This document shows, piece after piece, positions 37,540-56,699 of a stretch of DNA of 64,000 nt. Position numbers and translations under genes: made by a program. Each line of letters starts with the position of its first letter. Within the stretch, counting starts at the first letter, position 1. The stretch lies in sequence record KM190144; one strand, written 5' to 3'. Under the pieces are notes generated by a model that worked only from the letters and a program-made list of their open reading frames with translations, did no database searches and was not told where the DNA came from. The DNA is from Escherichia phage Av-05.

Positions 37540-37739
37540 TGGCCCTCCACATCGTCAATATCTTCCATACCATCTTGCCACAGAACTTCATAGCAAGCGT
37601 CATAAATTGCGCTCATAGCATCTTTACGATCTAACACATCTACAATTTTTGGATCAATACTTTTAATTGCTTCCGCAATTTTATCGTAAGCAATATCAGG
37701 ATGCATGTTCTTTTTTGCCATCTGGGATCTCCTCTTCAT
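37536..37739 (-). CDS. hypothetical protein
   Basis: 67-codon ORF. Confidence 0.25.
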   Translation of the reverse strand: MKRRSQMAKKNMHPDIAYDKIAEAIKSIDPKIVDVLDRKDAMSAIYDACYEVLWQDGMEDIDDVEGQ

Positions 37740-38217
37740 TTAAGACATAAATTGTCACATCACAATCATGGAGAACAGATTCTATCATAGTTTCTATGAT
37801 TTTCCAATCCCCACCTGCTAGTCCAGCACCTATTTTTGGCAGCCCGATCTTATAATCAGACATAAAACCATCTGTGTGCCTTTGCAAACAATCTCGCATT
37901 GCTGCTAAGGAATCGTAAAGGGCGTTATAATTCAGATCCCTCACACCCATTCTACGCCCATTATAACCGTATTGTGTGTACAGATTAAAACCAGCCAGTT
38001 TACCTTCGTTCATGACAACCCAAGTATAACTGCCCAGTTTTGTTCGATCACCTTTCTCTGTCTTTAAATCTTCAGCATACATTTTTGGGAATGCATTCTT
38101 TATTTCTTTAGCAATTCCAGACCCCATGGTGCAAAATGTATTACAACCATGAGCTATTACATTAACATCCCTTTTAAGTGCTGCCTCTATTAAGCAACCA
38201 ACTTTATACTTAAGCAT
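37696..38217 (-). CDS. macro-domain protein
   Basis: VIAHGCNTFCTMGSGIAKEI and IGAGLAGGDW motifs; paralog of 54450-54917; start by alignment to paralog. Confidence 0.55.
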   Translation of the reverse strand: MLKYKVGCLIEAALKRDVNVIAHGCNTFCTMGSGIAKEIKNAFPKMYAEDLKTEKGDRTKLGSYTWVVMNEGKLAGFNLYTQYGYNGRRMGVRDLNYNALYDSLAAMRDCLQRHTDGFMSDYKIGLPKIGAGLAGGDWKIIETMIESVLHDCDVTIYVLNEEEIPDGKKEHAS

Positions 38218-38564
38218 TGTCTGATACCTCTTCGCATTCGTATGGATAGATATCCAGTCTTTTCCCATTCCATTCGCAAGAGTAACACTCAAGAAAACTA
38301 CCATTAAATATTTCTTCTCTTACTTCAAGAATATCTCCTGTTTTTGGATATCCATCAACATCCGAAAAATCAGAAATCATTTTAACCTTCATTCACAACT
38401 CCTTTCAAGGAAGGCATTCATACTTTCCAATGCCTCGCTTTTATTTTTAGCACAAACAACAAACACACGCTTATTTTTATAGGTGTATCCTGCCATGACC
38501 ATATCGGATCTTTCAATCCACCATTTCTCATGTAGCTGGTCTTTCTTAAATTTATGTTTTGCCA

Positions 38565-38981
38565 TCAACGATTATACCATACCACATGTGTGGCCCAGTC
38601 TGGTTTTTTATCCCATACTGAAACGTCAGATTCATAGCTATCGTTAGGACACCAGTATCCGTTCCCATCTTCAGGGCTGAAAATCGCAGCTAGGACACCA
38701 AAATTCCAATCATCAAGATCCATCACCTTAGCCCCAGCGGTCTTAAAATTAGCCTCTGTTTTAAGATGATCTTTCAGAAAATCACTGATAGATGGAATTG
38801 GCATGTAAGCAATAACAGGTTCAAAATCAAAGTAGAAAGACCCATTGATGACATGAATAATACAGTTATTGCCTTGATAGGATTCACAAATGCCAATCTT
38901 ACCATCTGCCAAGACGACAAGCCATCTACCAACATCAAGATCTTCAACACCATTGGGAGTTTTTATCCACACATCATTCAT
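38565..38981 (-). CDS. hypothetical protein
   Basis: 138-codon ORF. Confidence 0.3.
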   Translation of the reverse strand: MNDVWIKTPNGVEDLDVGRWLVVLADGKIGICESYQGNNCIIHVINGSFYFDFEPVIAYMPIPSISDFLKDHLKTEANFKTAGAKVMDLDDWNFGVLAAIFSPEDGNGYWCPNDSYESDVSVWDKKPDWATHVVWYNR

Positions 38982-39021
38982 TTAGGTATTCCTAGGAAAA
39001 GCAGCCATTAGGCTGCTGCTA

Positions 39022-40230
39022 TTAATTTAAAATTGCATCTACATCTTTTGCAAAGTTCTTGTGATATTCAGTAATAATCTGCATGACAACAGGATACTTC
39101 TTAAGTAACTTCGCTGGCAGTCTGTCACGAAGGCCATCTAACAAAATACCCTTCCCTGTAGAGCTGTCATTAATAAACGTCATGAAGACAGATGATACAA
39201 AATCACGGTTGGAATGAGCATCATCTTTACCAAAGTTATCATACAGATATTGCAAGAAATTGGCTGAGAAGTCAATAATCTGATCATCTGTGTAGTTGGT
39301 ATTCTTCATAGCCTTACGTAGCCAGATGCAACCTTGTGATCCTAGCGTCCACAATACATCAGAGCTATCAGAGCCAGTGTGTTCTTTAATTGAACCATCC
39401 ATTACTTTCTCAATGGGGACCATATCAGCAACGCGAGTATGGTAATACCATAACTCTTTCATTAATGGCCCACCAATACACCCTTGCAAAGCAGCCATTG
39501 CAAGACGGGAAGTCAGATCACCATCCTCATACGCATACAGAATATCACTTGCAGTAACCCAAGTTCGTGGTGTGGCATATGCAGGACTGTTAATCTCATA
39601 CATGGCCTCGAAGTTTTCCAGTTTATCGGGATTGGCCTGGATAAAACCAATTACTGATGGATGCACATTTTTACGCAACGCATAATCCTGCATCCACACA
39701 GAGGCATCGTAATCAAGTTCCACAACAATAAAACGGTTAGCCAAAGGAGCTTCCATCATGGTCACTGCCGTACCATCACCAGGACGGTTCCCTGCCGCTG
39801 CAAAAACTGCACCTTTTGGAAAGGTGTACTTACCAATTTTATGATCCAAAACAATCTGGAAAGCTACTTTCTGTAAGTAGTTATCTGCATGTAAAAGTTC
39901 ATCAAGGAAAATAATACCTTCCCAATCTGGGTCTTCTGGCCAGAAATCTGGTAGCGCATAGACTGTACGTGTTTTTCCATTGTCGTCTGTTACAGGAATC
40001 TGTACACCTACAACGTCTGTCGGATCTTTATCCGCAAGACGAAAATCAACGAGATTATCATCTCGTTCACCAAACATCTCATTGGCAACTTGCTTCATGA
40101 CTTGACTCTTACCAAGCCCAGCACCACCAAACATCATAAGTGCTTTGTTTGCCTTCTTACAAAATTTCATGAGGCTTGGAATATCACGGAGTGTAACACG
40201 ATGATCTTCAAAAATATTTCTACTAGACAT
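39022..40230 (-). CDS. MoxR/CobS-like AAA+ ATPase
   Basis: Walker A GGAGLGKS, Walker B IIFLDELL, arginine-finger region. Confidence 0.6.
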   Translation of the reverse strand: MSSRNIFEDHRVTLRDIPSLMKFCKKANKALMMFGGAGLGKSQVMKQVANEMFGERDDNLVDFRLADKDPTDVVGVQIPVTDDNGKTRTVYALPDFWPEDPDWEGIIFLDELLHADNYLQKVAFQIVLDHKIGKYTFPKGAVFAAAGNRPGDGTAVTMMEAPLANRFIVVELDYDASVWMQDYALRKNVHPSVIGFIQANPDKLENFEAMYEINSPAYATPRTWVTASDILYAYEDGDLTSRLAMAALQGCIGGPLMKELWYYHTRVADMVPIEKVMDGSIKEHTGSDSSDVLWTLGSQGCIWLRKAMKNTNYTDDQIIDFSANFLQYLYDNFGKDDAHSNRDFVSSVFMTFINDSSTGKGILLDGLRDRLPAKLLKKYPVVMQIITEYHKNFAKDVDAILN

Positions 40231-40465
40231 TCGTCTCGTTCCTTAAATCGTTCTTCTGCTCAAGATAACTTTCAATGATACTGTCTATATCTGCTGATTC
40301 AATATCAGCATACAGATTTGTAATGCTTGATGCAAGGTCTTTGGCAGAAAGATTGTCTACTCTTTCTGCACCAAAAACTAAAAACCATTGTCGCCGTGTC
40401 ATCCTCGCTCTAACAACAGTTTTTAAAAACTCCGCTCTCTCTGAAAAATCAAGAGGTTTTACCAC
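40223..40465 (-). CDS. hypothetical protein
   Basis: 80-codon ORF. Confidence 0.3.
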   Translation of the reverse strand: MVKPLDFSERAEFLKTVVRARMTRRQWFLVFGAERVDNLSAKDLASSITNLYADIESADIDSIIESYLEQKNDLRNETNV

Positions 40466-40707
40466 TTATCCACCCAAACTCTGTTCTCATCACACCAGTC
40501 GTAGAACTCGTTCAAAGCCAGATTGAACTGCTGTAGAGGACTCACGATAAGGTTGGGGTTATCTTCTTTACTACAGATTTCCAAGTATTCCTCATATGTG
40601 AGAATATGCTGCATTTCTTCAAGAATATCATATAACCACCCATCGAAGTCAGCATTCTCTTCATCAGTCTGCTTTGGTAAAAGTCGTTTTACTCTTTTTA
40701 CAAGCAT
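40459..40707 (-). CDS. hypothetical protein
   Basis: 82-codon ORF. Confidence 0.3.
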   Translation of the reverse strand: MLVKRVKRLLPKQTDEENADFDGWLYDILEEMQHILTYEEYLEICSKEDNPNLIVSPLQQFNLALNEFYDWCDENRVWVDKW

Positions 40708-40807
40708 ATCTACAAACAGGTGAATATTATCATCTGCCCAAGGCTCTACCTTACCTTCTACGGGATTACCTTTCCAGATATCACGTAAATCAAGTCGATG
40801 TTTCCTT

Positions 40808-41005
40808 TTATAGCTCCTTAAGAGATTCTAAATCAAGATAGTCAATATCTTCGTCCACTCGTTTACCGTCTTCCTTACGGTATTTTACCTTAGTTTCAAA
40901 TGCTACCCAATAATCACCTTCATCTTTAAAGGTATCTTCCCACCCTAACCGGACTGCTGTCTTCCTGATGGTTCCTTTGTGAGTATATATCTGTTTACAA
41001 TACAT
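40808..41005 (-). CDS. hypothetical protein
   Basis: 65-codon ORF. Confidence 0.25.
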   Translation of the reverse strand: MYCKQIYTHKGTIRKTAVRLGWEDTFKDEGDYWVAFETKVKYRKEDGKRVDEDIDYLDLESLKEL

Positions 41006-41006
41006 T

Positions 41007-41222
41007 CTAATCCTCCCATTTTATCCATAAAGGGTATTCTGCAACATGCACTTTCTTACCCTTTTTGTTAATAAAAGTATACTCAACAAACTTTGCTATG
41101 TAAAACCTATTGTAATCCTCTGTACCTTTAACAGGACAGTCTGTCTTCCTTCTCTCCACCCATTCTCTGTGGATCACCGCTTTGTTCTTTGGATCAAAGG
41201 GGTGTGGTTGATAAACATCCAT
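41007..41222 (-). CDS. small conserved protein (paralog of 54899-55126)
   Basis: QPHPFDPKNKAVIHREW...EYTFINKKGKKVHVAEY shared with the + strand ORF. Confidence 0.4.
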   Translation of the reverse strand: MDVYQPHPFDPKNKAVIHREWVERRKTDCPVKGTEDYNRFYIAKFVEYTFINKKGKKVHVAEYPLWIKWED

Positions 41223-41719
41223 TATTTCCCCTCGAATCTTTTTCTTGCATCAACAAGTTTAAGATGCATTTCATGGTATTTCTTTAACCTTACCAAATCC
41301 TTATCTGATAAGGATTTAAGACGTTTTACGTCCATATTGTCTTTTAAATCAGCGAGTTTTACACGAATCGCATCATAATTAGTACAGATGCCCTCAATGT
41401 ACTCTTCTTCAGTCAGGCTCTGTTTCTTTGTTAGCAGAAGAACTGCATCTTTTACTCTGTTAGTGAACCCCAACATTACCAAATCGTAAGCTGTAACTTT
41501 GGTATCCTCAAGGATATCGTGAAGGACACCGATTGCCATTAGCTGTAAGTCATCATTACCAAGTTCATGCATCACCCTTAATGGGTGAAGAATGTATGGC
41601 ATTCCACCACGATCTTTCTGCTTAAGATGGTTTTCAGAGGCCAACTTTATAGCTAAAGCTAACTCCTGATGGGGTCTTAAATCTTGCATGTTACTAGGGA
41701 CAGACTTCGATTGTACCAT
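41222..41719 (-). CDS. HD-domain hydrolase (small alarmone hydrolase-like)
   Basis: HPLRVMHELG...VLHDILEDT resembles the SpoT/Mesh1 HD motif. Confidence 0.5.
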   Translation of the reverse strand: MVQSKSVPSNMQDLRPHQELALAIKLASENHLKQKDRGGMPYILHPLRVMHELGNDDLQLMAIGVLHDILEDTKVTAYDLVMLGFTNRVKDAVLLLTKKQSLTEEEYIEGICTNYDAIRVKLADLKDNMDVKRLKSLSDKDLVRLKKYHEMHLKLVDARKRFEGK

Positions 41720-42534
41720 TCATATGCCTCTTTCATATCAAAGGGTTTTATACCAATATTATCAAAATCTACAAGAGAATCAAGAAAAAATTCTCCTTTG
41801 TACCCAGCCATTTCTATCATTAAGCGTTCCTCTTGGGTAGGGATCTCCCCCAAGATAAGCTCTTCCAGCTCCTTTTCTACAACACGATGATACATTACTT
41901 CTTGGGTATTACACACCAAGTAGTAGTGCGATTTCTTATTCTCTACGCCTGGTGTGTTGGTTATCTTAATTCCAGCATGGCCTACATAATCATACATCTT
42001 TGTTTGGTAACGCATTCCATAACAACCTACCAGGGAAAAGGGTCCACAACTGGAATTAATCTCCCTGATGTGGAGAATATCTGGGTTTGTTCTGACATAG
42101 GAAGCCTTTATGGAAAACATATTACCATCCCAATGCCCCAATTGGGACAAAACAGACAGGAATTTTTGTGTTCGTGCAGACAACGACCCTGCTAAACATA
42201 TTCCATAATTAAAGCCTTGGAAAGAGATTGTTATTTGCCCACAAGTAATATCATAGCTTGAAAACTCATGCGTTAAGTTTACGCTTGCCATGTAAGCACG
42301 CTCGTCAGCTTCAACATAATATTTCCAATAACATTTCCTATCCCGAGTATCAAAACACATAAGCACAGCATGTTTTATGAGTTCTATTAAAGGGTTTGGT
42401 TCATGGTGGCGACTTTCAACTTCCCTTATAATGGCTTCACGGAGTGCATTAAAATTTATTTTCATAGATTTTGTGTGATGCAGGTAGTCATCAAAATAAA
42501 AATCCCCTTTATAATCCGTCAGCTTCTTCATCAT
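41677..42534 (-). CDS. hypothetical protein
   Basis: 285-codon ORF, first gene of the minus-strand early block. Confidence 0.35.
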   Translation of the reverse strand: MMKKLTDYKGDFYFDDYLHHTKSMKINFNALREAIIREVESRHHEPNPLIELIKHAVLMCFDTRDRKCYWKYYVEADERAYMASVNLTHEFSSYDITCGQITISFQGFNYGICLAGSLSARTQKFLSVLSQLGHWDGNMFSIKASYVRTNPDILHIREINSSCGPFSLVGCYGMRYQTKMYDYVGHAGIKITNTPGVENKKSHYYLVCNTQEVMYHRVVEKELEELILGEIPTQEERLMIEMAGYKGEFFLDSLVDFDNIGIKPFDMKEAYEWYNRSLSLVTCKI

Positions 42535-42644
42535 GTCTGTCCTCTAAAAAACTTTCATTAGCTCTTAAGAGAGTACAGAACTAAAAAATCAAAGTCAACG
42601 CTTGACAAACTGGAAATTTGTGAGATACTACGAACACAAGCTAA

Positions 42645-43460
42645 GTGACAGAGATATTCTGTATGGACTGGAATGAAGAGTTTACAACCAAAGAGATAAG
42701 GTATCTCAAAACACGACTCTTTTTCAAAAAGAGGAATGCCAAAGCAAGGGGTATAGAGTTTAATCTGACAGAAGATGACTGGTTTATGATGGGTAAAGGC
42801 TTACTTGGGAAAGGTGTTTGTGATTACACAGGCCTACCTTTTTCTGCAACACCTAATGACCCTCTCTACCCATCTGTTGAACGAATAGATGACAAAAAAG
42901 GGTATGTTCGTGGAAACGTTTGTGTAGTCGGCAAGAGAGCAAACCAGTTAAAAGATTTTCTTGTAGACAAAAAGAAAGCTCTAACGATTGTAGACCCACT
43001 TGACATGGATATCGTCCAAGGGATGATATTAAATATGTCAAAGGACCACTTGGAAAAGTTAAAACTTAAACACATACCTACGGAAACAGATATGAAAGAG
43101 ACAGAGAATGTAATTATTAATGAGCAGGTTGAAGAGATGAAAGAAAAATCTCTTCCTGACGATGTTGAAATTGCACTTGCATACGCAAACTACTGTAAAA
43201 CATTTGCGGAAGCAGGTATGAATGTTAGCGTTACTTATGCACAATTTAAGGCTAAATATTCAAGAAACACCTGTTCTCTGACAGGGGAGAAGTTAACAAA
43301 AACACCAAAACCTATTCTCATTATGGATTTAGATCTTGGGTTCGCAAAAGACAACTTTATTATTGTTTCTGAAAAGATGGAAACAGCATTAACACAACTC
43401 ATGATCAATACGAAAATGAGTTTACCAAAAATCACAGCTATGCTGAATAAGGTGGTTTAA
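42645..43460 (+). CDS. hypothetical protein with two internal repeats
   Basis: two C.(Y/S)TG... modules; first gene of + early block. Confidence 0.35.
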   Translation: MTEIFCMDWNEEFTTKEIRYLKTRLFFKKRNAKARGIEFNLTEDDWFMMGKGLLGKGVCDYTGLPFSATPNDPLYPSVERIDDKKGYVRGNVCVVGKRANQLKDFLVDKKKALTIVDPLDMDIVQGMILNMSKDHLEKLKLKHIPTETDMKETENVIINEQVEEMKEKSLPDDVEIALAYANYCKTFAEAGMNVSVTYAQFKAKYSRNTCSLTGEKLTKTPKPILIMDLDLGFAKDNFIIVSEKMETALTQLMINTKMSLPKITAMLNKVV

Positions 43461-43919: not shown

Positions 43920-43970
43920 CAAGTATAATAGGCTGTCGAAAGATAGCCTATTTTTGTATGGAGAATAGTT

Positions 43971-45407
43971 ATGCAAAAAGAAGAATATGAAATGATTGCC
44001 AGATTAGAGAAGGATGCTGTAAAAATTATCCAATCGGCACGAATAGCTCTTTTAAAGTACCGACCATTCTACGGTACTTTGTTAAGTTCTCTTCCTTTAG
44101 TTGCGAACTGGAAATGGTTGCCAACAGCAGCTACTGACCACAAAAACCTCTACTTCAACCCTGAGTTTATTATGGGTATGCCTGAAGAAAGGAAGAAGAA
44201 GGTTTTTGAGCGTGTGGATAATCACCCCACAATGACACAACAAGAAAAAGATGACTATAAAGACTATGTGAACGTATTTTATCGTAAGAAAACACCCAAA
44301 GAGGTTGTTGTTATTCTTATGCACGAGCTACGTCATATTACAAATGACCATCTATCTCGTGGAAAAGCATTTGACTCTAAAACCTACAACACAGCAGCGG
44401 ACCACTATATCAATACAGATTTGGTAGTATCAGATCTCGGACCGCGCTCAAACCAGATGTGTTTCTTCCCAATGGGGAAACAGACAATCTTTGACAAAGA
44501 TAAAGAGTTTGGGTTTATGGCTTATTGCTATTGTGATTTTAATTTCCACGGCATGACAGCAGAGGAGATTTACAGTCTCATAAACAAAGGCCAGCCGTCT
44601 GTTGGCAAACCTATGGGCACACACATAGGGGATTATGATCAGGACAGCAATATCCTAGGGTATGAAGATCCTCACCCAGTGCCAAGCCAGACAGAAAAAG
44701 ATGATAATATGTCGTGGTCATCTGGTCTTATCGAAGCAGCAATGGAAGCAGCGGGAGGAGAGGGGCCGAAAGAGGTGCGTGATGTTATTGCAAGAATGCG
44801 TAAACCACACATAAATTATCTTCAGATAATAAAACAGCGTATGCTTTCTCGGATCAAGTCTAACCTGACATACAGGAAGCCATCTCGTAGGTCTGGATCT
44901 ATGACACAGGCACTTCGACAGTACGGAGCTATCGGTAAAAAACAGCATATCGTTTTACCAGGAAGAGAGTACGATAATACTATCGATATAGTTATTGGTT
45001 TTGATGTGTCTGGATCAATTTCGAAGGCAAATTTGGACAAAATCTTTGGAGAAATCGTAGGATTATGCCAGCTTTACCGTGTTTTTCGCGTGACATTGTT
45101 CTGTTGGTCAACAAAAGTCGGAGAGGTTAAAGTTTATACACACGAAAACATCAAGGAAATGCTTGATTATAAAGTGAATTCTACTGGTGGGACTCTTGCA
45201 GCATCAGCTTTTGAGTATATTGAAAATAACATTTTTGATGCAAAAGACGTTATTATTTTTACAGACGGGTATATAGAGGATTTAAGCCACAAGAAAAAAG
45301 ATTGGGGACGCAAATGGGATATTCTTTGGGTTATTTGTGGTCGTGGAAATAATAAATTTGTACCACCTTTCGGAAGGGCTGTAAATTTAGATGAACACGC
45401 AAAATAA
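43971..45407 (+). CDS. vWA-domain protein with N-terminal HExxH metallopeptidase-like motif (CobT/CoxE-like)
   Basis: LMHELRHITNDH motif; C-terminal MIDAS-like DVSGS; likely partner of the AAA+ ATPase at 39022-40230. Confidence 0.55.
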   Translation: MQKEEYEMIARLEKDAVKIIQSARIALLKYRPFYGTLLSSLPLVANWKWLPTAATDHKNLYFNPEFIMGMPEERKKKVFERVDNHPTMTQQEKDDYKDYVNVFYRKKTPKEVVVILMHELRHITNDHLSRGKAFDSKTYNTAADHYINTDLVVSDLGPRSNQMCFFPMGKQTIFDKDKEFGFMAYCYCDFNFHGMTAEEIYSLINKGQPSVGKPMGTHIGDYDQDSNILGYEDPHPVPSQTEKDDNMSWSSGLIEAAMEAAGGEGPKEVRDVIARMRKPHINYLQIIKQRMLSRIKSNLTYRKPSRRSGSMTQALRQYGAIGKKQHIVLPGREYDNTIDIVIGFDVSGSISKANLDKIFGEIVGLCQLYRVFRVTLFCWSTKVGEVKVYTHENIKEMLDYKVNSTGGTLAASAFEYIENNIFDAKDVIIFTDGYIEDLSHKKKDWGRKWDILWVICGRGNNKFVPPFGRAVNLDEHAK

Positions 45408-45825: not shown

Positions 45826-45928
45826 AATTTAACCACACAGGGAGGCTAACGCACGTAGTCTCCCATATGTCCCCATTTCAGGGACTATGTTATAGTAGTC
45901 CTAACAAAACAACAAAATGGAACCTAAA

Positions 45929-46192
45929 ATGAAAACTTTCAACGAATTCATCTCAGAATCGTCTGGTGTGAAAATTAACAAAGCGGTCAATCAGGTTATT
46001 GCTGATATTCTTAATTTGTATAACATTGACTTAACTCCGCATATCACGCTTGGTAACAAACGAAACTTTTTCATATTTAACACATCCGAACTTGACGAAA
46101 ATCAGTTCAATAACATTCAACGTTTTGCGAATGATAAAGGTCTTCGACATGAGCCTGGTGGCTATAAAAAATACGCAATATATTTGAAATAA
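45929..46192 (+). CDS. internal-protein-like small protein
   Basis: N-terminus MKTFNEFISES resembles the T4 internal protein capsid-targeting sequence. Confidence 0.4.
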   Translation: MKTFNEFISESSGVKINKAVNQVIADILNLYNIDLTPHITLGNKRNFFIFNTSELDENQFNNIQRFANDKGLRHEPGGYKKYAIYLK

Positions 46193-46252
46193 AGGTATAC
46201 AAGCCTATAGGACTATGTTATAGTAGTCCTATTAAAACATGAGGAGAATATT

Positions 46253-46558
46253 ATGAAATTAGGCGAAACCAACCGAATTGGTCTTTTTACAATATTTGCA
46301 TCACCTTTTTACGCAGCTCTTTCTGTTGCAGTATTACAAAAGGCTTACGATATGGATGGTGTTCCTGGTTTTGTATTCTTATCACCATTTTTATTATTCG
46401 TCGGGGCTTTGTTATTATATGCCACGACTAGTTTTGACCATAACGTCTGGGTTAATTATAAATGTAAATTGTCTGAAGAAGAACATGCAGAAGCTCGTAA
46501 AAAAGCTATTGAATCTACCAATCTAGAAAATTTCATTAAAGAATGCCGAGGAAAATAA
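46253..46558 (+). CDS. membrane protein
   Basis: hydrophobic helices. Confidence 0.3.
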   Translation: MKLGETNRIGLFTIFASPFYAALSVAVLQKAYDMDGVPGFVFLSPFLLFVGALLLYATTSFDHNVWVNYKCKLSEEEHAEARKKAIESTNLENFIKECRGK

Positions 46559-46559
46559 T

Positions 46560-47246
46560 ATGAATAGTTCTAAAGTGTTTAATAGTCAAGCTCGTGCAGT
46601 AGGTGGTTTTGCTCATAACGTACAAAATGACCAAATCAAAAATGAACCAATGTTCTTTAACTGTGATTTGAGTTTTGCTTGGGATAACGGTGGTCCAATT
46701 ACTCGTAGCTTTATCCAAAATCTCCCTGACGATTGGAAAGGCTCGGATGTAGTATTTGATTCACGAGTCCACATGCTGATGCCTGGTTGGTATCCTGCTA
46801 TTCCTGGATATCACCATGATGATGTTCCTCGCCCTGATATTCCAGTCGGCCAACACTTTATTACTGCAGGACAACCTGACTATGATAACCCTCGTTACCA
46901 TTCTGAACATATTCTTGGTCTTGTTAACGCTGATGTGTGTCCTACTCATTTTGCAACAGGAACTGCAGAGTTCAGTCAGATTCCTGATGGCGAACTTATC
47001 TATCGCCAGTGGCACAAAGAAGTCCTCGAAAAAATTGAAAAAGGTGAACTAGAGAAATGGGAAGCTCCGGACCGTACTCTTCTTCAGTTTGATTGGCAAA
47101 CATGGCACACTGGTTCTCGTGCAATTAGTAATGGATGGCGTTGGTTCGGACGTGTATCTCGTAATACAGACCGAGTTAAAAAGATTACTAATGAAATTCG
47201 TGTCAATGCTCAAGTTTATCTGGAATTCCCTATGGAAGGCTGGTAA
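46560..47246 (+). CDS. hypothetical protein
   Basis: 228-codon ORF, His/Asp/Trp-rich. Confidence 0.35.
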   Translation: MNSSKVFNSQARAVGGFAHNVQNDQIKNEPMFFNCDLSFAWDNGGPITRSFIQNLPDDWKGSDVVFDSRVHMLMPGWYPAIPGYHHDDVPRPDIPVGQHFITAGQPDYDNPRYHSEHILGLVNADVCPTHFATGTAEFSQIPDGELIYRQWHKEVLEKIEKGELEKWEAPDRTLLQFDWQTWHTGSRAISNGWRWFGRVSRNTDRVKKITNEIRVNAQVYLEFPMEGW

Positions 47247-47737
47247 TGATTAACAAAACATATTGGTCTAATATAGACGACGGTAATGAAGGTATTTCGT
47301 ACTATTCAGTAGATTGGACAGGATGTCCATCCTACTTAGTGAAACGTATTTGTCAAGAATTTAAAATCGACCAGCCAGCAGGTATTATCGTGAACAGATA
47401 CATTAATGGATATCAACCTATCGATGAAGTAATACGAACAACTCAAGCTGAGCTTGAAAAGTTTTTCAATAAGTGCCAATGGATAACAGGATGGATTATA
47501 TTTGTACCGTCGGTATGGTTTTTTAGTACTAAAGTAAGTGCCTTTGCCATACCAGATATTATCGCTATATTATTAGCATCTACTATCGTAAGTATTATTG
47601 GTGGTATTATTGGTGGAGGTACTATAGGCATCATTATTAATCTTGTTAAAAGTAGTTTACAGGAACGTAAAGACAAGATAAAGGCCAAGAATAATGAAGT
47701 TGAACGTTTTATTACCGAATGCAGGAATTTGAGATGA
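47246..47737 (+). CDS. membrane protein
   Basis: hydrophobic segment with GG(I/T)IG repeats. Confidence 0.3.
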   Translation: MINKTYWSNIDDGNEGISYYSVDWTGCPSYLVKRICQEFKIDQPAGIIVNRYINGYQPIDEVIRTTQAELEKFFNKCQWITGWIIFVPSVWFFSTKVSAFAIPDIIAILLASTIVSIIGGIIGGGTIGIIINLVKSSLQERKDKIKAKNNEVERFITECRNLR

Positions 47738-47970
47738 GTATAGCAATTTACATTAAATCAGAATCATGTGATAGTTATCTGTACACATATGATAAAGATG
47801 TGTCAGAAGAAAAAATCAAAGACGATCTTAATATGGACCTTGATATGTTCTGTCCTATTGCAGATTACAAACTTGCGGTTTCTAATAGTGAAAGTCCATC
47901 TAAAGAAACGCGCATTGAAGAATTTATGTCCGAATTAATGGCCAAATCATGGGACCGAGATGATGAGTAA
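47719..47970 (+). CDS. hypothetical protein
   Basis: 83-codon ORF. Confidence 0.3.
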   Translation: MQEFEMSIAIYIKSESCDSYLYTYDKDVSEEKIKDDLNMDLDMFCPIADYKLAVSNSESPSKETRIEEFMSELMAKSWDRDDE

Positions 47971-48418
47971 GAAAAATAAAGTGAAAGAACTATCAGCCGG
48001 TATTATCTTCATGACAAAAGATAAAGAGTTATTCATGGGCCGTGTAACTGGTTCTCGTCCTAAAGGTGCATTAGCTCATCGGTGGGATATTCCTAAAGGC
48101 CGTGTCGAGCCAGGTGAATCTCCTATTGAAGCCGCTATTCGTGAATGCGAAGAAGAAACTGGGTTTACACAATATGACCCTGCCTTCCTGAAAGACCTAG
48201 GCGAACATCATTACTCAGACAATAAGAATATTCATCTATTCCAATATACCATCCCTGTAGAGCACGAGCAATTCAGAAACAGTGTTTGTAATTCCTATCA
48301 TACATTCCCAGACGGACGACAGATTCCTGAATTTGATGCATTCGCTTTAATTAAACCTTCTCAATGGGAATATGTAATGGGCAAATCATTATATAAGGTG
48401 CTCACTACCATCCTATAA
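47960..48418 (+). CDS. nudE: Nudix hydrolase
   Basis: Nudix box GRVEPGESPIEAAIRECEEETG; immediately upstream of e as in T4. Confidence 0.6.
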   Translation: MMSKKNKVKELSAGIIFMTKDKELFMGRVTGSRPKGALAHRWDIPKGRVEPGESPIEAAIRECEEETGFTQYDPAFLKDLGEHHYSDNKNIHLFQYTIPVEHEQFRNSVCNSYHTFPDGRQIPEFDAFALIKPSQWEYVMGKSLYKVLTTIL

Positions 48419-48425
48419 GTAATAA

Positions 48426-48451
48426 ATACCTCCTATAAACGTAGGAGGTAT
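48426..48451 (+). promoter_or_regulatory. SD-sequestering hairpin with late-promoter-like TATAAACG in the loop
   Basis: perfect inverted repeat ATACCTCCTA/TAGGAGGTAT; 3' arm is the ribosome-binding site of e. Confidence 0.5.
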
Positions 48452-48452
48452 T

Positions 48453-48941
48453 ATGAATATATTTGAAATGCTTCGTAATGACGAAGGTCTTAGACTGACT
48501 TTATACAAAGACACCGAAGGCTTTTGGACGATTGGCATAGGCCATTTAGTAACAAAGAACCCGTCTTTAGCCGTAGCTAAAGCTGAACTTGACAGAATGA
48601 TCGGTCGTAAATGCAACGGTACAATTACCCTTGATGAGGCTGAAAAGCTATTTAATGAAGACGTCGATAAAGCCGTTCGCGGAATCTTGGGTAATGCTAA
48701 ACTTAAACCGGTATATGATTCTTTAGATGCGGTTCGTCGATGTGCATTGGTCAATATGGTCTTTCAAATGGGTGTAGCAGGCGTTGCTGGTTTTACTAAT
48801 TCTCTTCGTATGCTTCAACAGAAACGTTGGGATGAAGCGGCAGTAAATCTAGCCCAATCTAAATGGTATCGTCAGACACCTAATCGCGCGAAACGCGTAA
48901 TCTCAACATTTAAAACAGGAACTTGGAAAGCGTATATATGA
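48453..48941 (+). CDS. e: T4-type lysozyme (endolysin)
   Basis: about 80 percent identical by eye to T4 lysozyme (MNIFEMLR...EGLRL...YKDTEG...TIGIGHL...). Confidence 0.9.
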
Positions 48942-49219
48942 AAACATACAGTGAATTTTTATCAGAATCTATTCTTAACGAAGCTACTGACACATTTGCA
49001 ACTAAGCTAGGTGCAGCTTTAGTTGAAGCTGAAAGTCTATTAGCACGTATTTCTGAACTTGCCAGTAAGATAGATACTCGCAAATTTGAGCGCACCAGTG
49101 ATATCGTTAAGCTTGAAGCACTGCTGCGTATGTGCGATAAACCGGAAGAAATCGCTAAGAACGGCTCGTTAATGAAACAACGTCTTGAAAAATATATTTC
49201 AGGCGCTTCAGAAAAATAG
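48938..49219 (+). CDS. internal-protein-like protein
   Basis: N-terminus [11 protein letters not shown]; ATG overlaps the e stop (ATGA). Confidence 0.5.
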
Positions 49220-49220
49220 T

Positions 49221-49250
49221 GTTTACTTCCTCCAAGGGTTTTGATACTAT
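49221..49250 (+). promoter_or_regulatory. T4-early-type promoter
   Basis: -35 GTTTAC, 17-18 nt spacer, -10 TACTAT; spacer is inverted-repeat partner of the denV SD. Confidence 0.5.
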
Positions 49251-49277
49251 ACATCTATCAACTACTTGGAGGAAATT

Positions 49278-49691
49278 ATGACTCGTATCAATTTAACACT
49301 TGTTTCTGAACTGACCGACCAACATCTTATGGCTGAGTATCGTGAATTACCTCGTGTATTCGGTGCAGTCCGTAAACATGTTCAAAATGGTAAACGTGTA
49401 AAAGATTTTAAAATCTCTCCAACATTTATTTTAGGCACGGGCCACGTAACATTCTTTTACGACAAACTCGAATTTTTACGTTTACGTCAAATCGAGCTAA
49501 TAGCTGAATGTTTGAAACGTGGTTTCAAAATCAAGGACACGACAGTCCAGGATATTTCCGACATTCCTGTAGAATTTCGTAATAATTATGTCCCGTCCGA
49601 AGCGTCCATTGCGATAAGTCAAGCACGCTTAGATGAAAAAATTGCTCAACGTCCCACTTGGTACAAATACTATGGTAAATCAATTTACTAA
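49278..49691 (+). CDS. denV: endonuclease V (pyrimidine-dimer glycosylase)
   Basis: near-identical by eye to T4 endonuclease V ([12 protein letters not shown]...[16 protein letters not shown]...). Confidence 0.9.
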
Positions 49692-49697
49692 GGAAAA

Positions 49698-49958
49698 ATG
49701 AAAATGTATCAAGAATTTATCACTGAAGCGGATGCCAAAGACCCCAAATTTAAAGTTAAAGCTTTCATTGGTGATGCGGAAGACTTTGGCTCATTAAAAC
49801 GTAATGGGTATTCTTTCTTAGGTGGCGATGGTAAAGAAATCAACACCTATGCAAAACGTAGTGAAATTGCTTATGTTGTAGCAAGTCCTAAAGTAGATGC
49901 TGATGATATTGGATACGATTTTAACAACTTCGGAATTATTTCTGGCGGTAAAGCTTAA
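49698..49958 (+). CDS. internal-protein-like protein
   Basis: N-terminus MKMYQEFITEA. Confidence 0.5.
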   Translation: MKMYQEFITEADAKDPKFKVKAFIGDAEDFGSLKRNGYSFLGGDGKEINTYAKRSEIAYVVASPKVDADDIGYDFNNFGIISGGKA

Positions 49959-49961
49959 ATT

Positions 49962-49991
49962 GTTTACGCTTAAGTATTAATATGGTATAAT
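49962..49991 (+). promoter_or_regulatory. T4-early-type promoter
   Basis: -35 GTTTAC, about 18 nt spacer, -10 TATAAT. Confidence 0.45.
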
Positions 49992-50021
49992 TACTCTATC
50001 AAAACAAACAAGGAAACAAAA

Positions 50022-50600
50022 ATGAAAACATATAAAGAATTTATCGCCGAGGCCTTTGCAGGAAAAGCTCAAGGCATTAATAAGGACGAGTGGAATTATC
50101 GTGGCGGAAATGGTTTTGACCCTAAAACTGCTCCACTTGAACGATATCTAGCCACAAAAGCTTCTGATTTTAAAGCCTTCGCTTGGGAAGGACTACGCTG
50201 GCGTAACGATCTAAATATTGAAGTTGACGGACTTAAATTTGCTCATATTGAAGATGTTGTTGCTAGTAACTTAGACGCAGCTTTTGTTAAAGCCGACAGT
50301 GACCTTCGTCGCTGGAATTTAAAACTGTTCTCTAAACAAAAAGGCCCGAAGTTTGTGCCTAAAGCAGGTAAATGGGTCATTGATAATAAATTGGCTAAAG
50401 CTGTCAACTACGCTGGTCTTGAATTTGCCAAGCATAAATCATCATGGAAAGGTCTTGATGCAATGACTTTCCGTAAAGAATTTGCCGATGTTATGGCTAA
50501 AGGTGGCTTTAAGGCAGAAATAGATACCTCTAAAGGTACGTTTAAAGACGCTAATGTTCAGTACGCTTACGCCGTCGCTAATGCGGCCCGTGGTAATTAA
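50022..50600 (+). CDS. internal-protein-like protein
   Basis: N-terminus MKTYKEFIAEA matches the T4 capsid-targeting sequence. Confidence 0.5.
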   Translation: MKTYKEFIAEAFAGKAQGINKDEWNYRGGNGFDPKTAPLERYLATKASDFKAFAWEGLRWRNDLNIEVDGLKFAHIEDVVASNLDAAFVKADSDLRRWNLKLFSKQKGPKFVPKAGKWVIDNKLAKAVNYAGLEFAKHKSSWKGLDAMTFRKEFADVMAKGGFKAEIDTSKGTFKDANVQYAYAVANAARGN

Positions 50601-50629
50601 TAAGGCCTATTTACATTTAAAGGAAACAT

Positions 50630-50959
50630 ATGAAAACGTATCAAGAATTTATCACTGAAGTTACATTATCTGCGGAACAGAAAGCTGCTATCGAAGAAGG
50701 TAAAAATCCCAAAGTAACATATAAAGTAAATGGTAAAGGCGTTTTTGATGGCTTGGTTCAAGACCCTGAATTGAAAAAAGCTCTTTCTAAAACTAATGCA
50801 TACTTTGCTCCTAAATTTAACGCAGCTGGTGTACTTATTGGATTGGATGTATTCAACTCTAAAGGTGTTCTATCTAATGCCTTTGGTTATGCCGCTAACA
50901 AAATTACCAAAGCCGCATGGGAATCCAATACCAAACAAGCTCAAAAGCCTAGAGTATAA
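50630..50959 (+). CDS. internal-protein-like protein
   Basis: N-terminus MKTYQEFITEV. Confidence 0.5.
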   Translation: MKTYQEFITEVTLSAEQKAAIEEGKNPKVTYKVNGKGVFDGLVQDPELKKALSKTNAYFAPKFNAAGVLIGLDVFNSKGVLSNAFGYAANKITKAAWESNTKQAQKPRV

Positions 50960-51133
50960 TTCTTGCCTAATAAAGGGAAACGCAACCTCTCCTCATGAAC
51001 GTCGAGTCCTCTGAGTGATGTACCTTTTCCAACCTGTAATAAGGTCGAGCCCAAGTGCGGTAATGGGTTTACATAGCGAGTCGAAGGACCTAACATGTGC
51101 CATGGAATGGCCCCAACCTAAAAGAGAAACTAA

Positions 51134-51673
51134 ATGAGAACATTTTTAACCGGACCTTATCTATCCCTGATGAATGCTTTTACACACCATTCTGATGCTA
51201 GAGTAGAAGAAATTTGTAAGAACGGTTATGCCCCACCATTTGAAGACGTACTCAAGCAGTACTGTACACTTCGTTTAGACGGCGGCAGACAATCAGGTAA
51301 ATCGACCGCAGTAACTAATTTTGCTGTTAATTGGCTGTATGATGGCGGAACAGTTATTGTTCTTTCTAATACTTCAGCTTATTCTAAAATTTCTGCTGGC
51401 AACATTAAAAAAGAATTTTCTCGTTATTCTAGCGACGATATTCGATTCCGTTTATTTACTGATTCTGTTCGTAGTTTTATTGGCAATGAAGGTTCTAAAT
51501 TCCGTGGATTAACGCTTTCTCGTATTCTATACATAATTGACGAGCCTATTAAAGCTCCTGATATGGATAAGATTTACAATGTACATATTAAAACAGTCCA
51601 ACACTGTTGCAAAAGCAAATATTGCAACGGCGGTAATGCTCGTCCTCAATTTTTTGTGATTGGAATGCAATGA
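51134..51673 (+). CDS. P-loop NTPase-like protein
   Basis: Walker A GGRQSGKST and Walker B-like ILYIIDEP. Confidence 0.4.
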   Translation: MRTFLTGPYLSLMNAFTHHSDARVEEICKNGYAPPFEDVLKQYCTLRLDGGRQSGKSTAVTNFAVNWLYDGGTVIVLSNTSAYSKISAGNIKKEFSRYSSDDIRFRLFTDSVRSFIGNEGSKFRGLTLSRILYIIDEPIKAPDMDKIYNVHIKTVQHCCKSKYCNGGNARPQFFVIGMQ

Positions 51674-51978
51674 TGACCACTATTGAAGTTTTTGAGTATT
51701 GTTATAACAGCCCAGTATGCAATAAAAGGGCTCTTGTAGAAAATTACGAGATTTACCATTTTAAACCTAAACGATATCGTTTGACTAAAGGTCCGTTCGC
51801 AGGGCAGCAGGTTCTTTGTACTGCTCCTAATGCACGACTGATGACTAGTATTCCGCATTTCAAAATGGAATTTATTGATGGGCCATTTAAGGGATTAATC
51901 ACTCAAAGTTTAATGGCGTTTAATTCCGACCCATTTTTGATTAAAGAAAAAACTTGGATAAATTTATTTTCTAATTGA
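51670..51978 (+). CDS. hypothetical protein
   Basis: 102-codon ORF. Confidence 0.3.
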   Translation: MMTTIEVFEYCYNSPVCNKRALVENYEIYHFKPKRYRLTKGPFAGQQVLCTAPNARLMTSIPHFKMEFIDGPFKGLITQSLMAFNSDPFLIKEKTWINLFSN

Positions 51979-51984
51979 GGTTAT

Positions 51985-52347
51985 ATGAAAGCATATCAAA
52001 TTCTTGAAGGTACACATAAAGGCACTATTTATTTTGAAGACGGTACTCAAGCCCGGATTATTGTCTCTAAGACTTTTAAAGAAGACGCTATTGTAGACCC
52101 GGAAATTTTCTACGGTTTGAATGCCCGTGAAATTGAAATTGAACATCAACCTAAAGTTAAAATTGAAGGTGGTCAACATCTGAACGTTAACGTTCTGCGT
52201 CGGGAAACTCTGGAAGATGCAGTTAAGCATCCGGAAAAATATCCGCAGCTGACCATCCGTGTATCCGGTTATGCAGTTCGCTTTAACTCTCTGACTCCGG
52301 AACAGCAGCGCGACGTTATCGCTCGTACCTTTACTGAGAGTCTATAA
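51985..52347 (+). CDS. autonomous glycyl-radical cofactor (GrcA/YfiD-like; T4 Y06I-type)
   Basis: C-terminal 60 aa with RVSGYAVRF glycyl-radical motif appears identical to E. coli GrcA; codon usage shifts mid-gene. Confidence 0.7.
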
Positions 52348-52571
52348 TGGCTAAATTGATTATAGAAGGGTCTGAAGATGTTTTAAAATGTTTTGCCGCC
52401 TGGTTTAGTTGCTCAGGCGAGCAATCATTCACTGAAGCATTTAGAATGGGTGATATTACTGGAAACTATCCGACAACTGATATCATTGTACGTGGATATG
52501 GTATTAATGAGCCTATCCAATTGGTCGAATATGACCTTGCCACCGATGAGGAAATTCCTTATGTCGATTGA
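52347..52571 (+). CDS. hypothetical protein
   Basis: 74-codon ORF. Confidence 0.3.
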   Translation: MAKLIIEGSEDVLKCFAAWFSCSGEQSFTEAFRMGDITGNYPTTDIIVRGYGINEPIQLVEYDLATDEEIPYVD

Positions 52572-52827
52572 AGATATTAAAGGCTACAAGCCACATACCG
52601 ACGATAAAATAGGTAAAGTGAACGCTATTAAAGATGCAGAAGTCCGTCTTGGATTGATGTTTGATGCTCTGATTGAAGAAGCCTATATCTTGAAAGAAAA
52701 TGAAACAGAGCATCAAACCAAAGAAGATATGGATGCAGTGCAGGCTCTTAAGTACGCTAAGCAACATCTAAAAGAAGCCAGCATGTGGGCCTGTCGTGCA
52801 GTATTTCGTCCTGAGGAAAAATACTAA
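52560..52827 (+). CDS. hypothetical protein
   Basis: start at ATG 52560 overlapping the upstream gene end. Confidence 0.3.
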
Positions 52828-53042
52828 TGGCTTCTACTATTACTGGGTTATTGGACTTCCAGGAAAAGGTCAACAAAATTTGTAGTGAATACTTAAAGTA
52901 TCTTGAAGAAGACCTTGAAGATTGTAAGGAAGAAGGCGAAGAAGATTATGCTGACCAGCGTCGTCGCCAAATCGAAGAGATGAGACATTTCGCCGATATG
53001 GTATCTAAAGAATCTTGGACTTTAACTCCATTTTATCAATAA
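52827..53042 (+). CDS. hypothetical protein
   Basis: 71-codon ORF, acidic. Confidence 0.3.
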   Translation: MASTITGLLDFQEKVNKICSEYLKYLEEDLEDCKEEGEEDYADQRRRQIEEMRHFADMVSKESWTLTPFYQ

Positions 53043-53046
53043 AGTA

Positions 53047-53075
53047 GTTTACTTCTCCTCTAGTTGTGTTACTAT
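53047..53075 (+). promoter_or_regulatory. T4-early-type promoter
   Basis: -35 GTTTAC, 17 nt spacer, -10 TACTAT; spacer TTCTCCTCTAGTTG is the perfect inverted repeat of CAACTAGAGGAGAA at the regB SD. Confidence 0.55.
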
Positions 53076-53103
53076 AGACCTGTCAACTAGAGGAGAAATA
53101 AAA

Positions 53104-53562
53104 ATGACTATCAATTCGGAAGTTTTTATCCGTCGCAATAAACTCCGTCGAATCTTTGAAACGGAGTTTCGTCAAATCAATGCCGGTATAAAAGATGCTG
53201 CAAAGTCTCTTGGACTACCAGGCTTTCATATCAAGTATTCTCAACATCTCTTAGATCGTGCCATCCAGAGAGAAATAGATGAGAATTACGTTTTTGAATT
53301 ATTTCGTAAAGTAAAAAATCACGTTAAAGAAGTTGCAGAATTTTTATCAATGCCGGCACGTCCAGATGTTGATGAAGATTTTGTCGAAGGTGTCGAATAC
53401 CGCCCAGGCCGTTTAGAAATAACTGATGGAAATCTTTGGTTAGGCCTTACAGTTTGTCGCGAAAATCCGGCATTCAAAATGAAGACTCTTCAATGTAGAA
53501 TGGCTATTATTAACAATAAACGACTACCAGGAAAAGCTTCTAAAGCAGTGATTAAAATCTAG
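53104..53562 (+). CDS. regB: RegB endoribonuclease
   Basis: close match by eye to T4 RegB (MTIN.EVFIRRNKLRR...YSQHLLDRAIQREIDE...LQCRMAIIN..RLPGKASKAVIK). Confidence 0.85.
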   Translation: MTINSEVFIRRNKLRRIFETEFRQINAGIKDAAKSLGLPGFHIKYSQHLLDRAIQREIDENYVFELFRKVKNHVKEVAEFLSMPARPDVDEDFVEGVEYRPGRLEITDGNLWLGLTVCRENPAFKMKTLQCRMAIINNKRLPGKASKAVIKI

Positions 53563-53570
53563 AGGTAAAC

Positions 53571-54113
53571 ATGAGAAAAGCACTACTCGCTGGTCTATTT
53601 GCTCTTTCATTATCAGCACATAGCTCCGAGCATACTTTTAGTAATGTCCAACTCGATAACTTGAATTATGCTTATCAGTTTGGGGAACAATTTTCTAAGG
53701 ACGGAAAATTTAAAACGCATGAAAATATGCATAAGAAAGGACTTGGATACATAATGGCCGCAATACTATGGCAAGAATCATCTGCCGGTATTAATCTTAA
53801 AGATAAGAAAGGTCACCATGCGTATGGAATGTTCCAAAACTATCTACCAACAATGAGGGCAAGAATTAACCAGCTTGGTTATAATATGACTGATGCCCAA
53901 ATTAAGAAAATGCTATCTAAGCGGTCTAATTCAGCCAGATGGGCTTATATCGAATTTTCTTATTGGTTAAATATACATAACGGGGATATAAGAAAAGCTA
54001 TATCCTCATATAATGCGGGATGGAAGACAAGTGCTGGAAGTAAATATGCTTCTGAAGTCCTAGAAAAGGCTAATTACCTTAAATCAAATAAACTACTGGA
54101 AATAAAAGAATGA
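53571..54113 (+). CDS. secreted lytic-transglycosylase-like protein (T4 vs.1-like)
   Basis: signal peptide; position after regB. Confidence 0.45.
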   Translation: MRKALLAGLFALSLSAHSSEHTFSNVQLDNLNYAYQFGEQFSKDGKFKTHENMHKKGLGYIMAAILWQESSAGINLKDKKGHHAYGMFQNYLPTMRARINQLGYNMTDAQIKKMLSKRSNSARWAYIEFSYWLNIHNGDIRKAISSYNAGWKTSAGSKYASEVLEKANYLKSNKLLEIKE

Positions 54114-54457
54114 CCAAAATGTTGGCTTTAATAGTTAGCTTGGTTTCATTTAACGCTCTTGCTAATACTACATATACTGATGTAACGGAGTATACAAACA
54201 GAACGGCGTCTGATTACTGTGGTAAAAGTCAAGAGTGTAAAGTAGATTTTTCACAAAAATTGTTATATGCGTATAAAGACGGAGAAAAAGATGGGGCGTC
54301 TAGTAGGTTCAAGGCGTCTACCTTAATTAAACGATATCATAAAAAATGGCAAATATTAGAATGCTCGGTGGCGGAACCTAAAGATAAGGCAGCATGCAAT
54401 TCTATGGTGGACCGTCTAGTTGACTCTTATACTAGAGGACTTGTAGCAAGTGATTAA
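54110..54457 (+). CDS. secreted protein
   Basis: signal peptide MTKMLALIVSLVSFNALA. Confidence 0.35.
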   Translation: MTKMLALIVSLVSFNALANTTYTDVTEYTNRTASDYCGKSQECKVDFSQKLLYAYKDGEKDGASSRFKASTLIKRYHKKWQILECSVAEPKDKAACNSMVDRLVDSYTRGLVASD

Positions 54458-54917
54458 AAACTATATCAAGGGCGATATTGTCGCCCTGTTTTCTAAAGGT
54501 AATAATATTGCTCATGGGTGCAATTGTTTTCATACAATGGGCGCCGGTGTAGCAGGTCAATTGGCAAAGGCTTATCCAAAAATTCTGGAAGCCGATAAAC
54601 TTCAAACTGAATTCGGAGACGAGTCTAAACTTGGGACTTATTCGGTTTATGAAAAATATTTTAAGACTCATAAAGCTTATTGCTTTAATCTTTATACTCA
54701 GTTTGAGCCGGGACCTAATTTTGAGTACTCTGCTTTAATGAATTGTATAATAGAATTAAATGAATTCGGAAAAAATAAGATAACAAAGCCTGTGATTTAC
54801 ATGCCAAGAATTGGAGCAGGTATAGGTGGTGGAAACTGGGATATCATTGAAGAAATTCTTGATACATATTCCACTAAACTAGAAATTGTGATTGTTGATT
54901 GGGAACCATTGTTATGA
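54450..54917 (+). CDS. macro-domain protein
   Basis: NIAHGCNCFHTMGAGVAGQLAKAYP and IGAGIGGGNW motifs; paralog of 37696-38217. Confidence 0.55.
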   Translation: MIKNYIKGDIVALFSKGNNIAHGCNCFHTMGAGVAGQLAKAYPKILEADKLQTEFGDESKLGTYSVYEKYFKTHKAYCFNLYTQFEPGPNFEYSALMNCIIELNEFGKNKITKPVIYMPRIGAGIGGGNWDIIEEILDTYSTKLEIVIVDWEPLL

Positions 54918-55508: not shown

Positions 55509-55517
55509 GGGACTCTT

Positions 55518-56099: not shown

Positions 56100-56126
56100 A
56101 TACTAATATCTAACCAAGAGGTATAT

Positions 56127-56339: not shown

Positions 56340-56351
56340 CAGGAGGCCTAT

Positions 56352-56654: not shown

Positions 56655-56660
56655 TTTACT

Positions 56661-56690: not shown

Positions 56691-56699
56691 CATCTATCA

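Follow-up and report, generated by a model that had tools for sequence, protein, structure and literature searches.

The 64,000-nucleotide stretch of Escherichia phage Av-05 DNA analyzed here (record KM190144; hereafter, the window) carries two genes for macro-domain proteins, which we call macroA and macroB. The first-pass annotation took them for two paralogs on opposite arms of one phage's early region. Instead, we found that they lie in DNA of two unrelated lineages, with junctions like contig joins, and that the window is very probably a composite sequence, made by assembly of mixed phages or by concatenation. Both are known, ordinary, and abundant single-copy genes, each normal for its own lineage. 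Overall, we consider it likely that the composite unites each lineage's single-copy member of the phage protein family PHROG 335, with macroB corresponding to the T4 gene tk.4/adfM, whose product likely counters the toxin DarT2, and with macroA probably doing the same.

Structure of the window

Using megablast, we compared the window with 50,697 phage records and resolved it into three blocks. These blocks and the sequence elements at their boundaries are as follows:

1-45889, first Vequintavirinae-like piece, with genes for DNA polymerase, primase/helicase, PIF1 helicase, rIIA/B-like proteins, RnlB, macroA, a MoxR-like ATPase, and a DUF2201 protein
45882-57169, plus strand, T4-like (Mosigvirus) piece of 11.3 kb, with e, denV, genes for internal head proteins, regB, vs.1, vs, tk.4, and tk (from the annotation of phage phiC120 and Pfam matches for RegB and TK)
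57170-63441, second Vequintavirinae-like piece, with genes for the major capsid protein, other head genes, and the large terminase; 97% identical to 58377-64645 of phage vB_EcoM_TH18 (TH18) and ~78% identical to Seunavirus phages
45882-45901, plus strand, first copy of GGACTATGTTATAGTAGTCC, a 20-bp element that belongs to a T4-type early promoter; site of the left junction
46210-46229, plus strand, second copy of the same element
57150-57169, plus strand, right junction, TTTACATCTTGGTAGGACTA, made up of a -35 box and a third copy of the element that breaks off after 6 bases, where Vequintavirinae-like DNA follows

The first block was similar, at ~95% identity, only to Escherichia phages 18-1-2, 19-1-2, 24-2-1, and TH18 (the TH18 group of Vequintavirinae), and this similarity stops 70 bp before the terminus of all four records. 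From 45882 on, the window matches phiE142 and other T4-like phages. The middle block as a whole has matches in hundreds of T4-like phages, and 46206-57169 is 99.98% identical to Mosigvirus phiC120. Neither junction was spanned by any of the phage records in the megablast comparison. Guanine-plus-cytosine content (37-38% versus 39-41%) does not separate the pieces, and we did not use it as evidence.

The repeated element at the junctions is palindromic and overlaps the -10 box (TATAGT) of T4-type early promoters, which have the form TTTACA, 17 bp, TATAGT. Besides the two full copies in the window and the partial copy at 57164-57169, there are three copies within 27 kb of phiC120 (at 3916, 5211, and 16164). 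At the left junction, TH18 reads ...CAGGGACATGGG where the window reads ...CAGGGACTATGTTATAG (in a longer form, ...TTTCAGGGACATGGG versus ...TTTCAGGGACTATGTTATAGTAGTCC). At the right junction, the T4-like DNA of the window ends in ...TTTACATCTTGGTAGGACTA, while phiC120 goes on with TGTTATAGTAGTCC (...GGACTATGTTATAGTAGTCC); Vequintavirinae-like DNA picks up again in a run of A residues, between a tail-fiber gene and a head gene. The T4-like block has at either end a short repeat that is dispersed in its own genome, and the first piece ends where independent assemblies of its closest relatives end, so the junctions have the appearance of contig ends. In the explanation that we favor, two unrelated lytic coliphage genomes would have been joined, most likely as contigs from a mixed sample, with the T4-like block placed between two nonadjacent pieces of a Vequintavirinae (TH18/Seunavirus-like) genome.

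The arrangement of the flanking genes bears on how such a sequence could have come about. To the left of the block lie a gene for a 478-amino-acid (aa) DUF2201 metallopeptidase/VWA protein (43971-45407) and a gene for a 144-aa protein; to the right lies the capsid block. In all five complete Vequintavirinae genomes compared (GAP31, SalP219, KE23, KE22, and NINP13076), these two gene sets are 60-90 kb apart, and their relative orientation is opposite in four of the five. Past its homolog of the 144-aa gene, GAP31 continues with its own genes. Owing to this distance and to the mostly inverted orientation, simple insertion of the T4-like block is excluded.

It is still conceivable that the window represents one genuine genome, that is, a natural recombinant of a Vequintavirus and a T4-like phage with two diverged macro paralogs, perhaps of differing specificities. 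Both junctions fall in intergenic DNA, no gene is cut, and the flanking genes are all intact, which counts against a composite, since a selected natural recombinant would look alike. Short microhomologies (GGAC on the left and the A-run on the right) and the T4 early promoter element at the start of the block would also fit recombination. However, contigs bounded by repeats would give the same intergenic, gene-sparing picture, and a recombinant is difficult to reconcile with the positions of the Vequintavirinae flanks in the five complete relatives. It is also at odds with the near-identity of the block to a T4-like phage, given that identity of the flanks to their nearest relatives is only 95-97%, and with the T4-specific genes of the block, virion and DNA-repair genes among them (e, denV, regB, vs, tk, and those for internal head proteins), which have no evident use in a Vequintavirus. 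Furthermore, the junction was absent from the collections searched: a 31-mer across it did not occur in the viral, metagenome, or genome collection, nor did a 44-mer form occur in the viral one. Two copies of the family in one record would be a ~0.1% event. We therefore regard a genuine recombinant as highly improbable, and we give just as little credence to its specific form, in which illegitimate recombination at the early-promoter element brought an 11-kb T4-like early block into a Vequintavirus-like genome. If a hybrid were real, its two diverged AdfM-type macrodomains (34% identity to each other) would give broader protection, against different ADP-ribosylating defenses.

Two further checks concerned the left junction and the ends of TH18. 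A contig in ENA with a 95%-identical macroA (P0002) ends ~3.5 kb short of the left junction. The far end of TH18, which we checked for T4-like DNA on the supposition of circular permutation, has ordinary Vequintavirinae early genes instead. Ea22/EaA labels in the left part of the window raised the possibility of a third, lambdoid source, which we rejected, as these are small genes that are also present in TH18 and mark no further junction. For users of the record, conclusions about gene content or synteny that cross 45.9 kb or 57.2 kb of the window are unsafe, because the two-copy architecture would arise from the composite sequence.

Several features of the surrounding records were observed along the way. 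Between the two full copies of GGACTATGTTATAGTAGTCC is a 91-aa open reading frame (ORF) (45917-46192) that occurs in phiE142-type phages and is absent from that spot in phiC120; this region looks like promoter-bounded variation of a gene cassette. The phiC120 record (NC_055718.1) is 186,570 bp long, ~17 kb above the 166-171 kb typical of its relatives, and the record of phiE142, which is 98-99.7% identical to the T4-like block, is only 121,442 bp long; both may be imperfect assemblies themselves. At the other end of the window, similarity to the TH18 group ends at 63441, within the large-terminase region (window ~63441-64000; TH18 63775-65902). The TH18 terminase gene is interrupted by an HNH homing endonuclease, and so the loss of similarity after 63441 probably reflects a differing mobile insert.

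Two single-copy genes of one macro-domain family

The two macro-domain genes and the neighbors used to place them are as follows:

37696-38217, minus strand, macroA, a 173-aa stand-alone macro-domain protein in the first Vequintavirinae-like piece; PHROG 335, usually labeled "phosphatase"
54450-54917, plus strand, macroB, a 155-aa ortholog of T4 Tk.4 (AdfM) in the T4-like piece
53104-54457, plus strand, regB, vs.1, and vs, synteny anchors upstream of macroB (RegB PF10715, E = 4e-69; phiC120 and T4 annotation)
55518-56099, plus strand, tk (thymidine kinase), synteny anchor downstream of macroB (PF00265, E = 7e-57)
36132-37172, minus strand, RNA ligase 2-like gene, RnlB (PF09414, E = 1e-9; "RNA ligase 2" in TH18 and RnlB in GAP31)

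Both ORFs proposed by the first-pass annotation were confirmed, each with a plausible ribosome-binding site, and the two proteins are kin: they share 34% identity over 148 residues (E = 4e-25), which is far beyond chance, and both were assigned to PHROG 335 (E = 9e-62 for macroA and 5e-67 for macroB). The profile hidden Markov model check that had been suggested for them gave scores above the gathering score of 22 bits for the Pfam Macro family (PF01661) in each case (24.1 bits for macroA and 28.6 bits for macroB). The core motifs that the annotation had pointed to (AHGCN..MG.G.A and IGAG..GG.W) are present in both proteins and include the glycine-rich ADP-ribose-binding loops, MG(S/A)G(I/V)A and IGAG(L/I)(A/G)GG.W. 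Across 123 members of the family, G34, G136, and N26 (macroA numbering) are invariant.

The gene macroB starts with GTG after GAGGA and overlaps the stop of vs. Its product aligns with T4 Tk.4 (NP_049723) over 155 of 155 residues at 85% identity, and the surrounding order of genes, regB-vs.1-vs-tk.4-tk.3-tk.2-tk.1-tk, is that of T4, which places macroB between vs and tk as in the early region of T-even phages. On the basis of this identity and gene order, we identify macroB as the ortholog of T4 tk.4/adfM. Its sequence matches macro domains of known structure (E = 4.5e-11), and the predicted fold of T4 Tk.4 has been published as DarG-like. The long-standing annotation of T4 tk.4 reads "phosphatase; A1pp motif."

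The gene macroA starts with ATG at 38217, is preceded by GAGG, and overlaps the stop of the gene upstream. We preferred this start over a 202-aa version of the ORF (to 38304), because homologs are 164-173 aa long and begin at the same MLKYKVG. The protein is 98% identical to a TH18-group protein, 95-97% to proteins on ENA contigs, 72% to a "phosphatase" of Salmonella phage SPLA5a, and ~50-70% to many proteins on contigs of 140-150 kb; identity to T4 Tk.4 is 36%. Its gene lies between that of a MoxR-like ATPase and rnlB, rather than between vs and tk, and the GAP31 counterpart, labeled "phosphatase," is likewise flanked by a MoxR ATPase gene and rnlB. We conclude that macroA is the "phosphatase"/macro gene that Seunavirus-like phages usually carry as a single copy. 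The "phosphatase" label itself, in T4, GAP31, and PHROG 335, is motif-based annotation only.

For macroA, the fold was examined with AlphaFold2. The model, built from an alignment of 123 sequences, had a predicted local distance difference test (pLDDT) score of 95.2 and a predicted template modeling (pTM) score of 0.91, which amounts to a confident macro fold. When searched against the PDB with Foldseek, it matched TARG1 best (E = 9e-11), followed by BT1257, the DarG macrodomains of Thermus aquaticus and Mycobacterium tuberculosis, Poa1p, and SCO6735; the top 50 matches were all macro domains or a design built on one. Model and matches both point to the three-layer alpha/beta/alpha arrangement of macro domains.

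We characterized the spread of the family with tblastn. PHROG 335-type macro genes occur in ~2,800-3,000 phage records, whose carriers include T4-like phages, Vequintavirinae, Felixounavirus, Pseudomonas PAK_P1-like phages, and Vibrio phages. The survey by Iyer et al. (2022) points the same way, with macro domains in 41% of myoviruses (PMC9503650). Single copies are the rule, with 2,800 places in 2,797 records, so that possession of two copies, from which the first-pass annotation had argued, is not a feature of either lineage. About 3 of the 2,797 records have two places for the family, for example, Escherichia phage BEU50 (OM632671.1; 193,190 bp), which is unusually long for a T4-like phage and may be either a further composite or a phage with two genuine copies.

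Likely function of the macro proteins

In our best explanation, macroB is expressed early and is an orphan homolog of the DarG antitoxin's macrodomain. The host toxin DarT2 would put ADP-ribose on thymidines of single-stranded phage DNA, and macroB most likely removes it, such that replication can continue; macroA, the Vequintavirinae counterpart, would probably act as macroB does. In a transposon screen of T4, tk.4 was the single significant gene required on a host with DarTG2, and a clean knockout of tk.4 was sensitive to DarTG2, for which the gene was renamed adfM, for anti-DarT factor Macrodomain (bioRxiv 10.1101/2025.11.20.689424). Furthermore, an unrelated phage macrodomain, PhiKZ gp104 (AdfM), strips DarT2-made ADP-ribose from DNA in vitro (PMC13309987). 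Given the T4 genetics and this in vitro activity, the mechanism with the best support is that of an early-expressed, antitoxin-like orphan glycohydrolase by which phage DNA would be cleared of DarT2 adducts. For both proteins we infer enzymatic de-ADP-ribosylation of DNA, and for macroA a shared target; whether the anti-DarT2 role extends to macroA, as homology suggests, we consider evenly balanced. The proposal that the window encodes a counter to ADP-ribosylation-based defense finds backing in published genetics for the T4 ortholog of macroB; the view of the genes as two paralogs of one phage is not supported.

Several points weigh against this explanation. At the position of the catalytic Lys (K80 of DarG, K84 of TARG1, and K78 of the PhiKZ protein), 123 of 123 family members have an invariant Gln, as does BT1257. 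The residue is Q82 in macroA and the Q of NLYTQ in macroB, and T4 Tk.4/AdfM is the same in this respect; chemistry identical to that of DarG is therefore not assured. The family is also nearer in sequence to BT1257 and Poa1p than to DarG. The evidence from T4 is genetic only, and enzymatic removal of ADP-ribose from thymidine by T4 AdfM is what its authors infer from it (bioRxiv 10.1101/2025.11.20.689424). Finally, the function proposed for macroA derives from homology. PHROG 335 proteins may remove DNA-linked ADP-ribose in a Lys-independent manner, or they may protect against DarTG2 via a different substrate.

These residues and relationships could instead indicate that the macro proteins act mainly on small ADP-ribose derivatives, such as ADP-ribose-1''-phosphate, O-acetyl-ADP-ribose, or ADP-ribose-derived immune signals or toxins, an alternative that we regard as unlikely but worth weighing. 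The first of these substrates would make them Poa1p-like phosphatases, as the old "A1pp phosphatase" annotation has it. Among sequences in the PDB, BT1257 and Poa1p were the first matches of both proteins (E = 1e-8 to 5e-11), ahead of DarG; SCO6735 and TARG1 were matched as well. H23 and T30 of macroA align with H23 and S30 of Poa1p, both positions are conserved in the family, and the catalytic Lys of DarG and TARG1 is absent. According to Iyer et al. (2022), phage macro domains mostly target low-molecular-weight ADP-ribose derivatives, and their genes often accompany those for RNA repair (PMC9503650). The gene rnlB lies 2-5 genes from the macro gene in the TH18 and GAP31 lineages (five in GAP31), and macroA could be tied to RNA repair via this ligase. 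Nevertheless, the T4 ortholog was the sole significant gene against DarTG2, a DNA ADP-ribosylating system (bioRxiv 10.1101/2025.11.20.689424), and we saw no gene for KptA/Tpt1 or a 2H phosphoesterase beside either copy. Nor is the ligase a constant neighbor. The first-pass annotation had placed one copy next to an RNA ligase, and a PF09414 gene does lie on the same strand as macroA, two small ORFs away. However, no RNA ligase was annotated within 4 kb of the macro gene in a Vequintavirus or a Phapecoctavirus, and such proximity is also absent for T4 tk.4; the association is only loosely conserved. Together, the DarTG2 screen, the lack of KptA or 2H neighbors, and the poorly conserved proximity of the ligase weaken the case for small derivatives.

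It is far less probable that the T4-like copy reverses or tunes ADP-ribosylation of host proteins or RNA by the phage's own Alt, ModA, and ModB: T4-like phages do encode three ADP-ribosyltransferases (PMC9503650), and TARG1, the best structural match, removes protein-linked ADP-ribose, but no Alt/Mod homologs are known from Vequintavirinae or from many of the family's other carriers, the catalytic Lys and Asp of TARG1 are both missing, and sensitivity to DarTG2 is the only reported phenotype (bioRxiv 10.1101/2025.11.20.689424).

The impact on phage biology is small, as the genes are known and abundant and an anti-DarT2 role, the likely one for them, has already been published. The missing DarG catalytic lysine matters in that the chemistry or substrate of the family may differ.

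Other genes in the first Vequintavirinae-like piece were also noted. A 402-aa protein (39022-40230, minus strand) was not assigned by Pfam and is a MoxR ATPase in the annotation of GAP31 and PVP-SE1. It is paired with the DUF2201 metallopeptidase/VWA-like protein (43971-45407, plus strand), and the pair is conserved across Vequintavirinae. Many relatives have the DUF2201 gene labeled "HNH endonuclease" or "tail protein" in RefSeq, apparently through an error of annotation. At 32053-35038 (minus strand) are genes for an rIIA-like protein (HATPase_c_3, 666 aa) and an rIIB-like protein (PF26926 on an ENA homolog), which adjoin genes for a cell-wall hydrolase (35059-35604) and a PIF1-type helicase (30749-32053).

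Comparison with known systems

We compared the two proteins with characterized macrodomains after checking the sequences of DarG and TARG1 against PDB entries (for TARG1, 2LGR). Two other anti-DarT factors were set aside: AdfB of phage ICP1, a 77-aa mimic of the C-terminal domain of DarG that has no macrodomain, and AdfN of T4 (gene 30.3), an unrelated NADAR enzyme against DarTG1.

With DarG of DarTG2 (T. aquaticus, 5M31/5M3E; M. tuberculosis, 5M3I), the phage proteins share the macro fold (Foldseek E = 1e-9 to 8e-9), the glycine loops, and the Asn that aligns with DarG N22, which is N26 and invariant in the family. DarG was also the only defense-system model that they matched, in PADLOC (PDLC02990; E = 3e-11 and 1e-8) and in NCBIfam (NF048014). 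However, the NCBIfam scores of 39.6 and 30.8 bits fall far short of the equivalog cutoff of 250, and only positions ~1-150 of the 329-338 in the DarG models are covered by phage proteins of 155-173 aa, which therefore do not have the two-domain architecture. The C-terminal DarT-binding domain is missing from macroA and macroB, and of the active-site pair Asn22/Lys80, the Lys80 position is Gln. We saw no DarT gene beside either copy, where the neighbors are small phage ORFs, vs, tk, the RNA ligase, and the MoxR-like ATPase. By these measures, PHROG 335 is not a DarG.

TARG1/OARD1 was the top Foldseek match of macroA, with a TM-score of 0.85 normalized to the target, but at the positions of its catalytic K84 and D125 the phage proteins have Gln and Ala/Gly. 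Poa1p, the yeast ADP-ribose-1''-phosphate phosphatase, and BT1257 (2FG1/2AFC) share with the phage proteins the HxCN motif and the PRIG(A/C)GLAGG.W loop, and BT1257 has the same Gln, yet identity to the phage proteins is only 22-26%. We know of no function for BT1257. For Poa1p, structures of H23A and S30A mutants exist in the PDB, as judged from entry titles.

Two of the systems compared come from phages. The AdfM of Chimallivirus PhiKZ (gp104) is, like the two proteins here, a phage-encoded orphan macrodomain, and it counters DarTG2 (PMC13309987). It keeps the DarG-type N23/K78 and is imported into the phage nucleus, whereas macroA and macroB have Gln and belong to the BT1257/Poa1p-like branch. 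T4 Tk.4/AdfM differs from macroB, which comes from a Mosigvirus, in details such as the second glycine loop (GKG in T4 versus GGG). It is further from macroA, which comes from another subfamily and neighborhood, has a C terminus 18 residues longer, and carries an insert after the YTQ strand. At 85% identity and the same gene order for macroB, and 36% identity within the same PHROG 335 for macroA, T4 Tk.4/AdfM is nonetheless a system that resembles both proteins.

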